UHGV virus genome: UHGV-1815592
Direction: 5' to 3' (one strand)
Source of the DNA: a virus
Length of the DNA stretch: 14,810 nucleotides
The position numbers were made by a program. Position 1 is the stretch's first letter. The number at the start of each line of letters is the position of its first letter. Below are positions 9,001-12,000 of the stretch, piece by piece.

Positions 9001-12000
9001 TGAATGTTACTGAATCCCCGATCATCTATCGCGACGAAAGTATGCGCACCGCCTGCTCTCCCGATGGTTTATGCAGTGACGGCAACGGCCTTGAGCTGAA
9101 ATGCCCGTTTACCTCCCGGGATTTCATGAAGTTCCGGCTCGGTGGTTTCGAGGCCATAAAGTCGGCTTACATGGCCCAGGTGCAGTACAGCATGTGGGTG
9201 ACACGAAAAGATGCCTGGTACTTTGCCAACTATGACCCGCGTATGAAGCGTGAAGGCCTGCATTATGTCGTGATTGAGCGGAATGAAAAGTACATGGCGA
9301 GTTTTGACGAGATGGTGCCGGAGTTCATCGAAAAAATGGACGAGGCACTGGCTGAAATTGGTTTTGTATTTGGGGAGCAATGGCGATGAAGCATCCTCAC
9401 GATAATATCCGGGTAGGCACGATCACTTTCGTCTACTCCGTTACAAAGCGAGGCTGGGTATTTCCCGGCCTTTCTGTTATCCGAAATCCACTGAAAGCAC
9501 AGCGGCTGGCTGAAGAGATAAATAATAAACGAGGGGCTGTATGCACAAAGCATCTCCTGTTGAATTAAGAACGAGTATCGGGATGGCACATAGCCTCGCT
9601 CAAATTGGAGTCAGGTTTGTGCCAATACCAGTAGAAACAGACGAAGAATTTCATACGTTAGCCACATCCCTTTCACAAAAGCTGGAAATGATGGCGGCGA
9701 AAGCAGAAGCAAACGAGAGAGACCCGGCATGACAACAACAGAATGCATTTTTCTGGCAGCAGGCTTCATATTCTGTGTGCTTATGCTTGCCGACATGGGA
9801 CTTGTTCAATGACACCTCAGCAGGAAAACGCCCTTCGCAGCATTGCCCGTCAGGCTAATTCTGAAATCAAAAAAGCCAGACAGCAGTTTCCGGATAAAAA
9901 CGTCGATGACATTTGCCGTAGCGTACTGAAGAAGCACCGCGAAACGGTAACGCTAATGGGATTCACACCGACTCATTTAAGTCTGGCGATCGGCATGTTA
10001 AACGGCGTCTTTAAGGAGCGATGAACATGAAAAGCAAAATCATCAGGGAGCTACAGGCTCCTTTTTTATTGTTCGCATTCACCCTCAAGCGTATTAACCA
10101 ACAATTCAGGGATTAATGGAAGATGGCAGACATCATTGATTCAGCATCAGAAATTGAAGAATTACAGCGCAATACAGCAATAAAAATGCGTCGCCTGAAC
10201 TACCAGACTGTATCCGCAACTCATTGTTGTGAGTGTGGCGATCCGATAGATGAACGAAGACGCCTGGCAGTTCAGGGTTGTCGGACTTGTGCAAGTTGCC
10301 AGGAGGATCTGGAGCTTATCAGTAAACAGAGAGGTTCGAAGTGAGCGAAATTAACTAGAAGCCAAAGATAAAATCATCGCTGAGCAGGAGAAAATCGCTA
10401 ACGGAGAAAAGACAGTAAGTCAGTATATGAAAACCGCATGATATCATCAGATAAAAATCGATCGTAAAGCGAAATATTAATACCAGAATAAACGAGTCGA
10501 GGTAAATTATATTACCTCGATAAATTAACTAAAACTTGCCCGCTATATACTATCTCATTCAGTATCATCACGCGCGGTCTGTGCATATGTTACTACCGCA
10601 CCTAATGTATTAATTTTCTTTTCAACATAGATAATATTATCGTACTCATAATTGCCATACGGATAGCAAATGCGAATATTCTCATGTAGATCGGGGTCAT
10701 CCACCTCAGCTCCAGAACAACTTTTTGAACTACCGGAAGTATACCGATACGGTGCAACATAAGACGATGTCTCTCCAGGCAAAAAATAAGTTAGTGTTGT
10801 AAGGGGTATAATCAGAAAAAATCCAGCAAATATGCACATCCCTGCATAAACCTTAAGGTATGCTGACAGACTCTTCCAGCCGCTTTGTTTTACTATCCCC
10901 TTCTTAACCCAAAACAGAGATAACAGAAAAGCTATTCCCATGCTAAACAGAATGTAATAGTGGGATATACTCTGATTAAGAAACGTGACCCTGTAAATAT
11001 CTGCCCGCCACCAGAAGAAAAGGAAAATAAAGATCAGGCCTAAAACTGTCATGCAAATCAAATAAGGATACGAATCTTTTTTCATGTTTAGCGCCCATAA
11101 AATTTTTCCTGCCCCGGACAAATTTACCATCCATTTTTTGCGCAGAAAATAGCTCATTACTTACTGCACAATAATACACAAAATTGCGTAAATTTTTTGC
11201 ATGGATTTTAGCTCTTTCAGCCGACGTTTAAGGGGTAAATAGCATTTCCTAAAAGCAACTGCACCAACCCAACAGAATGAGCTACCGCTTACGTTGAGAG
11301 CAAAAAAGTGTATAGCAGCAATGAACAGCATCCTCGCACTGACGAGGATTTCTTTTATCTGAACTCGCTACGGCGAGCTTGAGAGGTTAAAACGATGAAA
11401 AATAATGTAATGAAAAATGGAACTATCGACAGCCAGGCTCTGTTGAAAATGGTGAATGAAGCGCGGAGACTGTGCGGTGAAAAAGAAGTACGCAACAACG
11501 ACTTCATTGCACGCATCAAAGATGAGCTTGAGGGGGAGGGTTACGAAATTTTCGTAACCCCCATGGATAAGAAAAAAGGCGGAGCGGATCAGGTGGTTAT
11601 AGTGATGACCTACAAGCAAGCCCTGCGCGTCGCCGCACGTGAGTCGAAAGCCGTCCGTCGTTCGCTGGTCGACAAACTTGAATCAATGCAACAGCAGTTG
11701 CAACAAAAAACGACCACGAAGAAATCACCGGATGGCCTTGAAGAATTCCGTAAGGCACGCGCATTGAAAATGACCGTCGACACAATGAAAGACCTCTTCG
11801 ACTTCCTCCCTCACCTCGCACCGGAAGCTAAACAGGTCGTTGCCGCCAGCCTGATTAATCCCGTCGTCGGCTTTAGTGCAATCCCTCTTCCGGTCATTGA
11901 TGAACATCACTACTCTGCGTCGGAGGTTGGCACCATGCTTGGCATTTCAGCCAACAAGGTAGGGCGCATTGCCAACACCTACATGCTCAAAACAGAAAAG

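Follow-up and report, generated by a model that had tools for sequence, protein, structure and literature searches.

The window analyzed here is a 14,810-nt stretch of the virus genome UHGV-1815592. Among its lambda-like genes lies an open reading frame of 200 amino acids (10555..11157, minus strand) on the opposite strand to both neighbors, a DksA-like zinc-finger gene and an Ant-like gene (Table 1). A first-pass annotation, made from the sequence alone, had singled out this ORF for its orientation and its AT-richness, and both observations hold. Its GC content is 38.6 to 38.8%, compared with 50.2% across 7625-10344 and 48.2% across 11395-13079, which ranks it among the lowest 4.6% when every 531-nt window is compared. 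GC at third codon positions is 37%, against 55 to 63% in the bet, exo, and ant genes.

Table 1. Features of the membrane-protein locus and its surroundings (window coordinates; residues numbered on the 176-aa protein).
Feature	Position	Strand	Remarks
DksA-like Zn-finger gene	10123-10344	+	Neighbor of the membrane-protein gene
Junction of lambdoid backbone and module	10345..10447	.	Short remnants resembling the ead/Ea22-like region
Mobile module (moron)	10448..11222	-	P2-backbone relic, predicted promoter, 5' UTR, coding sequence, terminator; alignment to L014
Intrinsic-terminator-like hairpin of the module	10497..10520	-	9-bp stem
Coding sequence, 176-aa membrane protein	10555..11085	-	Starts at Met25 of the mechanical 200-aa ORF; stop codon 10555-10557
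C-terminal domain, residues 102-176, five-stranded beta	10558..10782	-	Predicted periplasmic, 75 aa
TM helix 3, residues 70-101	10783..10878	-	Predicted in-to-out; AlphaFold model, hydropathy
TM helix 2, residues 38-61	10903..10974	-	Predicted out-to-in; AlphaFold model, hydropathy
TM helix 1, residues 5-29	10999..11073	-	Predicted in-to-out; AlphaFold model, hydropathy, charge
Non-conserved 5' extension of the mechanical ORF	11086..11157	-	Holds the predicted promoter and 5' UTR
Predicted extended -10 element	11121..11129	-	TGGTAAATT (TGnTAAATT); conserved across loci
Weak -35-like hexamer	11144..11149	-	TTTTCT; 17 nt upstream of the -10 hexamer; inferred
56-aa ORF	11161..11331	-	"Putative membrane protein" in the phage 434 annotation; not conserved; overlaps the P2 backbone relic
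Relic of P2/P4-type cos-proximal backbone	11165..11222	-	Three degenerate ~10-bp direct repeats (TTTACGCA / TTTGTGTA / ATTGTGCA); alignment
tL4 terminator of the PL operon	11330..11349	+	Hairpin and T-tract; "t-L4" in phage 434 record M60848
Ant-like gene	11395-12123	+	Neighbor of the membrane-protein gene

The 200-aa ORF exists as first described, but its product is shorter. Met25 is the sole start conserved family-wide, being invariant in 17 homologs (family members are 169 to 180 aa long), and Met1 and Met10 fall upstream of, or on, a conserved -10 element. The product is therefore a protein of 176 aa. The Met1 ATG is also missing from L014, the copy in an E. coli P2-like prophage. Existing records place the start at Met10 (phage 434) or Met1 (RefSeq), and the Shine-Dalgarno sequence ahead of Met25 is weak in the window copy. 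Because dN/dS is about 0.1 (0.10 versus L014 and 0.08 versus L004, another P2-borne copy), sequence comparison identifies this as a real gene. We found 74 close homologs, and a profile search among 1.8 billion sequences returned the same architecture in 61 cluster representatives. The 56-aa ORF directly upstream is probably spurious and no gene, judging from comparative data. It has no match in PHROG, PADLOC, or NCBIfam, it is unannotated in RefSeq O157 genomes, and homology with the P2-borne module stops within it.

Hydropathy and the AlphaFold model (pLDDT of 82 overall and 89 within the C-terminal domain) agree with the first-pass annotation on three transmembrane helices. The predicted topology is that of an inner-membrane protein with its N terminus inside and C terminus outside, and the charge distribution agrees with this orientation. 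Both the conserved short N terminus, MKKDSYPYL, and the loop after the second helix, with five lysines and zero acidic residues, are predicted to be cytoplasmic. The C-terminal domain had been called Cys/Tyr-rich. It is indeed Tyr-rich, with 9 tyrosines in 75 residues, but has merely two cysteines, C123 and C140, both of them invariant. A disulfide between these two probably closes the periplasmic domain, and the first periplasmic loop is predicted to pack on the beta domain. The motif CSGAxVxxPxL...IxICYPxGxY is invariant. The most conserved part of the protein is this folded, predicted periplasmic domain, which is under strong purifying selection, rather than the transmembrane bundle. A lipoprotein reading was rejected, as the context of Cys11 is unlike a lipobox and Cys11 is unconserved.

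The first-pass annotation did not recognize the family, and remote homology searches agree, revealing no clear homolog among lysis or housekeeping proteins. Pfam gave nothing above noise for 19 family members, and NCBIfam gave no match to the membrane protein. There was no match in PADLOC-DB v2 at E ≤ 0.1 for the protein or its neighbors, nor any among PDB sequences, and fold searches returned nothing significant. The protein matches PHROG 1416 (E = 2e-50, residues 113-200), which is itself unannotated, and none of the annotated PHROG families, including those of lysis. A profile-search match to a giant repeat protein (P0121, 3074 aa) was a low-information match to the Cys motif and is no relative. 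In the literature, neither the accession WP_000120056 nor the locus tag ECs0804 led to a phenotype or expression record, and the 434 genome paper gives no function for the gene. Papers on the svsR sRNA and on a Salmonella prophage transcriptome turned out to concern other loci.

The gene belongs to a unit with sharp limits. A blastn alignment of the window to L014 runs from 11222 to 10448 at 76% identity and ends there, and comparison across loci identifies this interval as a moron, a self-contained transcription unit with a predicted promoter of its own. The sequence TG(G/A)TAA(A/G/T)TT recurs 44 to 48 nt upstream of the ATG in eight loci from four genera, in which the flanks have diverged, and the TTTT of the -35-like hexamer is invariant in alignment A4. 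A promoter scan reported no canonical sigma-70 promoter at the module. The terminator hairpin attributed to the gene by the first-pass annotation (10520..10497) is present, with a 9-bp stem, a folding energy of -12.9 kcal/mol, and z = -3.0 versus shuffles. Its T-tract is weak (CUCGUUUAUU). This hairpin lies inside the segment common to L014 and is partly conserved there. The tL4 terminator is lambdoid backbone and lies outside the module. On the other side, left-flank homology ends at about 10357 in most lambdoid phages, after which an ead/Ea22-like gene follows; about 150 other lambdoid phages have this arrangement. Weak matches link the junction (10345..10447) to an Ea22 pseudogene region adjoining the P2-borne copy. 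Within the PL operon, the module lies in the exo-xis part and takes the place of ea22, which occupies this slot in other lambdoid phages.

The morons of Hendrix and Juhala, such as HK97 gp15, have their own promoter and terminator, deviant composition, and patchy presence (PMC3594210). Likewise, the window unit has its own terminator, deviant GC, and presence or absence among otherwise collinear relatives; a promoter of its own is predicted. However, it replaces a backbone gene, ea22, whereas a classical moron is inserted where two genes adjoin. The donor of the window unit can also be traced, to a P2-like hotspot, through a backbone fragment carried along. The relic at the upstream end of the module is about 75% identical to a backbone element (GGCGGAAAGGGCATAAA..CAAAAAAATTGTGCAAATTTGTGCACTATTGTGCA) that lies 360 to 430 nt downstream of the portal gene Q, ahead of unrelated cargo, in at least eight Enterobacterales species. 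Analogous repeats adjoin cosR in P2. The alignments thus identify the window cassette as captured from the gpQ-gpA hotspot of a P2-like phage, because about 60 nt of P2-type backbone, brought along with it, persists upstream. Note that an operator or activator site specific to this gene was also considered for the triple 10-bp repeat (TTGTGCA x3) and rejected, given that the backbone element precedes unrelated cargo. The 434 record annotates an upstream cII site as well as the 56-aa ORF, and we ascribe both to the P2 backbone relic. A genome-wide pattern scan and alignment led us to reject the cII site, the repeats being P2/P4-type backbone.

Module DNA is 98.7 to 100% identical in phages 434, 2B8, and mEp332 and at ECs_0804 of E. 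coli O157:H7 Sakai. These three phages are the sole carriers among 50,697 phage records; among complete E. coli genomes, 915 of 5426 (17%) hold the 775-nt module at ≥95% identity. CPT_434_36 of phage 434, its 2B8 and mEp332 homologs, and ECs_0804 in the Sakai prophage Sp3 all correspond to the window gene and occupy its genomic slot; they are recorded as "putative membrane protein" or "hypothetical protein". The gene is kept in the decayed Sp3 prophage of O157:H7, next to lpxR. In P2-like prophages of E. coli, Salmonella (two clades), Klebsiella, and Enterobacter, relatives with 51 to 78% identity lie between the portal gene Q and the replication gene A. Phage-borne homologs have 38 to 44% GC within loci of 52 to 54%. 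Others, with 42 to 57% identity, are chromosomal and outside prophages, with host-like GC, in Klebsiella, Enterobacter, and Cedecea, and still others occur on Pantoea megaplasmids. Most lambdoid and P2-like phages lack the gene.

The cos-proximal gpQ-gpA locus, which holds old and tin in P2, has been described as a defense hotspot, and our family is its "system #4, 3 TM", found in 470 of 18,150 loci (PMC9122126, Table S5B). The system #4 representative matches the window protein with 51% identity over 168 residues (BLASTP, E = 3e-56) and has the same three helices and the motif SKSCSGAxVDDPDL...ICYPYG (PMC9122126). It sits between gpQ and gpA of P2-like prophages, whereas the window copy occupies the ea22 slot within the PL operon of a lambdoid prophage. 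System #4 is catalogued there as an unnamed single-gene cargo of a temperate-phage accessory hotspot and is missing from that study's table of tested systems (PMC9122126). The membrane-protein gene is the only sizeable gpQ-gpA accessory gene, besides one or a few small ORFs, in two of the P2-like loci (L004 and L026). Defense genes are the largest recognizable class of cargo in the phage accessory hotspots that hold the closest relatives. The P2 hotspot also carries partition systems and cytolethal distending toxin (PMC9122126), and the E. coli P2-borne allele is accompanied by StbA/StbB.

Judging by its context only, we tentatively favor an envelope protein that is expressed in the lysogen and excludes superinfecting phages, a reading that we place slightly short of probable. 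In both phage types, the gene opposes the early lytic operon and has its own conserved, predicted extended -10 element, which together suggest that it would be transcribed in a lysogen while PL is repressed. The protein may then act at the periplasmic face of the inner membrane and stop genome entry; this is the weakest step of the proposal. The partner bound could be an ejection or tape-measure component of the phage, or an inner-membrane factor of the host on which phages depend. Such exclusion would be of the type of P22 SieA, T4 Imm, or HK97 gp15, by an unrelated protein. Frequent carriage as single-gene cargo of the P2 gpQ-gpA hotspot counts in favor, as does a predicted topology that puts the most conserved part in the periplasm. 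The first-pass annotation had suggested superinfection exclusion or abortive infection, a guess to which these two observations lend indirect support.

P22 SieA is the best parallel for the proposed function. Like the window protein, it has three predicted transmembrane helices and is encoded by an opposite-strand accessory gene; it resides in the inner membrane, where the window protein is predicted to lie, is prophage-expressed and about 165 aa long, and has its own promoter (PMC10883804). The two are nonetheless distinct, with no homology to SieA types A to C (hhalign probability 0.2%). The window protein lacks the conserved SieA motif, FxRYPxEAxxFNK, for which a cytoplasmic location is predicted, and SieA is without the folded periplasmic C-terminal domain predicted here. 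P2 old and tin share position instead. They occupy the same cos-proximal slot as the P2-borne family members and, like them, are transcribed away from cos, convergent with gene A; their promoter adjoins a similar triple repeat. However, Old is an ATPase-nuclease of the cytoplasm, the annotation of tin describes a block to T-even phage growth, and neither product has sequence kinship with the window protein or its architecture of three helices plus periplasmic domain.

The non-prophage chromosomal homologs count against exclusion, as they fit a general envelope function equally well, and the periplasmic domain is without the diversification often seen in phage-contacting proteins. Also on this side are the lack of homology to any exclusion or defense model searched, the partition and toxin cargo of the P2 hotspot, the negative scan for a canonical sigma-70 promoter, and the weak Shine-Dalgarno sequence ahead of Met25. 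The gene may encode a lysogenic-conversion or host-fitness factor unrelated to phage, an envelope protein that guards against envelope-acting stress or adapts the cell to it, though we consider this rather unlikely. It could provide orphan immunity to a periplasm- or membrane-acting toxin (a pore-forming or lipid II-targeting bacteriocin, or a T6SS or CDI effector) or have a role in colonization. Immunity proteins to E1-type pore-forming colicins are three-TM inner-membrane proteins. The chromosomal and Pantoea megaplasmid copies also speak for host fitness, as do retention next to lpxR in a decayed O157 prophage, the virulence and maintenance cargo of the P2 hotspot, and strong purifying selection on the periplasmic domain, which suggests a conserved partner. 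However, neither a colicin or bacteriocin immunity Pfam nor any other Pfam is matched, no toxin gene is consistently adjacent at the homolog loci examined, and the closest relatives are overwhelmingly found in phage accessory hotspots, in which defense is the largest recognizable class of cargo.

An abortive-infection effector that depolarizes or permeabilizes the inner membrane upon infection and so kills the cell ahead of phage release, in the manner of RexB or AbiZ, is improbable. Small multi-TM proteins are common effectors of defense systems, the family occurs in the P2 defense hotspot, and in Klebsiella its gene adjoins one for a 790-aa AAA_16 NTPase. Nevertheless, the gene mostly stands alone without a sensor partner, PADLOC gives no match, conservation peaks in the folded periplasmic domain rather than the helices, and chromosomal homologs argue against intrinsic toxicity. 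Class I holins are among the small three-TM proteins and the gene is phage-borne, but a function in the lytic cycle is very improbable indeed, be it as a lysis regulator resembling a holin or antiholin or as a helper in the phage's own DNA entry or release. The lysis cassette is distant, and in both phage types the gene is transcribed in opposition to the early lytic operon. Most lambdoid and P2-like phages lack the gene, which is therefore dispensable, and a defective prophage has kept it. It matches no annotated PHROG lysis family, and the topology predicted for its product, which includes a large periplasmic domain, does not resemble a holin's.

Returning to superinfection exclusion, a bolder and more doubtful form of this reading is that the family is a new kind of single-protein exclusion factor, whose conserved periplasmic beta domain would bind a conserved host component of the inner membrane or periplasm, one that genome entry by many tailed phages requires. 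This would explain why both P2-like and lambdoid phages carry the gene, why selection on the domain is purifying rather than diversifying, and why bacteria keep chromosomal copies.

Phage 434, a classical phage, carries the cassette, as do O157:H7 and roughly every sixth complete E. coli genome. Among cargo of the E. coli P2 hotspot, its family ranks fourth in frequency, yet we found no name, domain assignment, or phenotype for it. The P2 backbone fragment upstream clearly records, at the molecular level, a transfer of cargo between the accessory hotspots of two temperate phage families that are unrelated. Given that temperate phages carry this family in their accessory-gene (defense) hotspots, the protein is a good candidate for a factor that keeps other phages from infecting. 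Should it prove to act in exclusion, it would affect phage host range across a large proportion of E. coli, Shigella, and Salmonella strains, a matter of consequence for phage therapy and typing.

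The AT-rich gene on the reverse strand of the window is real, and its product is 176 aa long (10555-11085), because Met25 is the only start conserved in an alignment of 17 homologs and homologs are 169 to 180 aa long. The first-pass annotation had read the full ORF (10555..11157) as a 200-aa product. It had correctly placed this ORF on the minus strand, with plus-strand genes on both sides, and its call of AT-richness also holds (GC of 38.6 to 38.8%, versus 50.2% in the left flank and 48.2% in the right flank). GC of the ORF is among the lowest 4.6% of windows of equal size, and its GC3 is 37% versus 55 to 63% in neighboring genes. 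The gene is an independent, horizontally mobile unit under purifying selection (against a 78%-identical homolog, dN/dS is 0.10 overall and 0.07 for the C-terminal domain; against a 70%-identical one, it is 0.08). A word-indexed search returned 74 homologs, enterobacterial without exception, and a full HMM search gave only 61 matches among 1.8 billion cluster representatives. An architecture of ~170 aa is common to essentially all full-length HMM matches.

The gene encodes a small protein with three transmembrane (TM) helices, as had been proposed; hydropathy and the AlphaFold2 model (19 family sequences; mean pLDDT of 82) agree on this number. In the model, a short strand in the first loop (residues 34-36) lies beside the folded C-terminal beta domain, which reaches a pLDDT of 89 when modeled alone and is the most conserved part of the protein. 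This domain had been described as rich in Cys and Tyr. Its nine Tyr bear out the latter, but there are only two Cys, both invariant. These residues (C123 and C140), on either side of a hairpin, could form a disulfide in the periplasm. The TM2-TM3 loop carries five Lys and zero acidic residues and the C-terminal domain is net acidic; the positive-inside rule therefore predicts an N-in, C-out topology, with the beta domain in the periplasm. The protein had no match in Pfam, NCBIfam, PADLOC, or PDB chain sequences. Its C-terminal 88 residues match PHROG 1416, a family of unknown function.

The gene is widespread under uninformative names. DNA at 10400-11375 is 98.7 to 99.9% identical to phages 434, 2B8, and mEp332. 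The phage 434 counterpart is CPT_434_36 ('putative membrane protein'), for which the 434 genome paper gives no function. Of 5426 complete E. coli genomes, 915 carry the 775-nt module comprising the gene and its flanks at ≥95% identity, with every copy chromosomal; one is ECs_0804 of O157:H7 Sakai, within the decayed lambda-like prophage Sp3. Every source names the protein 'hypothetical' or 'transmembrane protein', and a literature search by accession and locus tag found no mention of the gene.

Homologs with 55 to 78% identity lie between portal gene Q and replication gene A in P2-like prophages of E. coli, two Salmonella clades, Klebsiella michiganensis, and Enterobacter hormaechei. They are always transcribed away from Q and convergent with A, often with few or no accessory neighbors. 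In P2 itself, old and tin occupy this cos-proximal locus, which is a defense hotspot according to Rousset et al. (PMC9122126). Their system #4 (Table S5B) is a single protein without Pfam domains, described as '3 TM' and found in 470 of 18,150 loci. This sequence shares 51% identity with the window protein and is absent from their tested-systems table. Hotspot cargo also includes partition systems and a toxin (PMC9122126), and the E. coli allele WP_000711113 adjoins StbA/StbB and an Ea22 pseudogene. In Klebsiella P2-like prophages (L021, L022, and L023; 2281-5623), the family gene accompanies a 790-aa protein with a weak AAA_16 match and a 279-aa domain-less protein, which together may be an unrecognized defense system. 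Two domain-less ORFs (81 and 119 aa) precede the family gene in Salmonella P2-like prophages (L003, L006, and L011; 5227-5888), with the portal gene on one side and the P2 repeat element on the other.

The window and the E. coli P2-borne copy are homologous at the DNA level over 11222 to 10448, a stretch that takes in 137 nt before the ORF, the ORF itself, and 107 nt after it, terminator included. That the gene has its own terminator had been suggested, and the hairpin (10520..10497; 9-bp stem, −12.9 kcal/mol, z = −3.0) agrees; the T-tract after it is weak. Eight loci, representing four genera, keep the motif TG(G/A)TAA(A/G/T)TT 44 to 48 nt 5′ of the ATG; we read it as an extended −10 promoter element (11129-11121). 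Transcription would then start near 11114, downstream of the candidate starts Met1 and Met10.

Upstream of this predicted promoter are three ~10-bp direct repeats (10-bp form ATTGTGCA). Together with the preceding GGCGGAAAGGGCATAAA...CAAAAAAA, they make up a conserved element of ~60 nt, as a pattern scan with one genome for each species showed. It lies 360 to 430 nt downstream of P2-type portal genes, at the edge of the cos-proximal hotspot, and the cargo genes that it precedes are unrelated; this holds for at least eight Enterobacterales species. P2 has three analogous repeats (NC_001895, about 33440-33480), 110 to 150 nt from cosR; on our reading of the sequence, the −35 of the old promoter falls within their reach, so that the two overlap. 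The element may belong to the packaging signal that P2 and P4 share, or it may be a promoter or operator common to the cargo genes. Three loci that have the element lack a portal gene (L044, L058, and L086) and may be P4-like satellites. Window 11222-11165 matches the element at about 75% identity; a P2-like hotspot was therefore the source of the lambdoid copy, which brought ~60 nt of P2 backbone along. In the 434 record, OL657226 27236-27249 is annotated as a 'transcription factor CII binding site' (TTGYN6TTGY). It corresponds to window 11168-11181 (minus strand), where two degenerate P2-type repeats lie, and the site is probably a pattern match rather than a cII-dependent promoter. The relic overlaps a 56-aa ORF that is annotated upstream of the gene in 434 and lacks conservation.

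The window is the early region of a lambdoid prophage, with cII-like and cro-like genes also present, and its gene layout places the PL operon on the plus strand. In ~150 other lambdoid phages, an ead/Ea22-like gene follows the same left flank from ~10357; thus, the module sits where these phages have ea22. E. coli P2 hotspots, too, commonly carry Ea22 genes. A frameshifted ead/Ea22-like pseudogene follows the module in an E. coli P2-borne copy (L020 5771-6141), and window 10345-10447, just 3′ of the module, has short weak matches to that region. This suggests Ea22 sequences as a substrate for P2-like/lambdoid recombination, a plausible route of transfer. The interval 11395-13079 (plus strand) holds two anti-repressor-like genes (PHROG 1726 and PHROG 377) between tL4 and the excisionase-like gene, whereas phage 434 has ORF55 and ORF114 there; a second variable slot therefore directly adjoins the module. 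Transcription of the integrase gene meets that of the PL operon and excisionase-like gene head-on, whereas in lambda and 434 int follows xis on the same strand.

Features of the window, the modeled protein, and the P2-type element
Feature	Position	Strand	Remarks
dnaB-like helicase	519-1895	-	
cI repressor	3614-4315	+	
lambda cIII thermoregulator RNA	7260-7318	+	full-length match to RF01804, 88.5 bits; expected 5′ of a cIII gene
gam, bet, exo	7625-9389	+	
DksA-like zinc-finger gene	10123-10344	+	
tL4 terminator	11330-11349	+	hairpin; so annotated in old 434 record M60848
Ant-like genes (two)	11395-12123 and 12447-13079	+	
sRNA-Xcc1 match (RF02221)	12319-12407	+	Rfam gathering-level, 69.3 bits, E = 4e-11; in the spacer between the Ant-like genes
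Excisionase-like gene	13742-13933	+	
Integrase gene	13914-14810	-	continues past window end
Helices	residues 5-29, 38-61, 70-101		AlphaFold2
Five-stranded beta domain	residues 105-171		AlphaFold2
P2-type element, window	11165-11222	-	
P2-type element, L014 (E. coli P2-like prophage with the module)	5861-5920		
P2-type element, other loci			L026, L081, L087, L095, L068, L097, L059, L037

Two temperate phage families that are unrelated to each other carry the gene in their accessory hotspots, and in both it is oriented against the early lytic operon. We propose, tentatively and at somewhat less than even odds, that the gene would be transcribed in the lysogen from its own predicted promoter, that the C-terminal domain would be disulfide-bonded in the periplasm, and that the protein, at the inner membrane, would hinder genome entry of superinfecting phages. 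T4 Imm and HK97 gp15 act by interfering with superinfecting genome entry. The same working mode is that of P22 SieA, a three-TM inner-membrane protein (162 to 164 aa; PMC10883804). Profile comparison with SieA found no resemblance (hhalign probability of 0.2%).

An envelope, immunity, or fitness function unrelated to phage is less likely, although it is favored by the strong conservation of the domain and by the existence of chromosomal homologs. Distant homologs (42 to 57% identity) are lone, non-prophage chromosomal genes in Enterobacter mori, Klebsiella, and Cedecea; others are on Pantoea megaplasmids. The Enterobacter and Klebsiella chromosomal copies have GC near that of their own loci, versus 38 to 44% in phage-borne copies, and the history and function of the family on the chromosome may be older. 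Two of these homologs (Klebsiella L015 6001-6543 and Enterobacter L007 6001-6510), at a host-like 52 to 55% GC, adjoin LysR-type regulator genes. That the protein is a membrane effector of abortive infection is improbable. A lytic-cycle function is very improbable indeed.

The gene was already annotated as hypothetical and its family listed as unnamed hotspot cargo. As a moron-encoded membrane protein it is of a familiar kind, a solid but unsurprising candidate. What is new is the corrected gene model with its predicted architecture, the connection of the 434/O157 gene to the P2 hotspot family, and the relic of P2 backbone, which reveals the direction of transfer. The gene is a very widespread and cheaply testable candidate.
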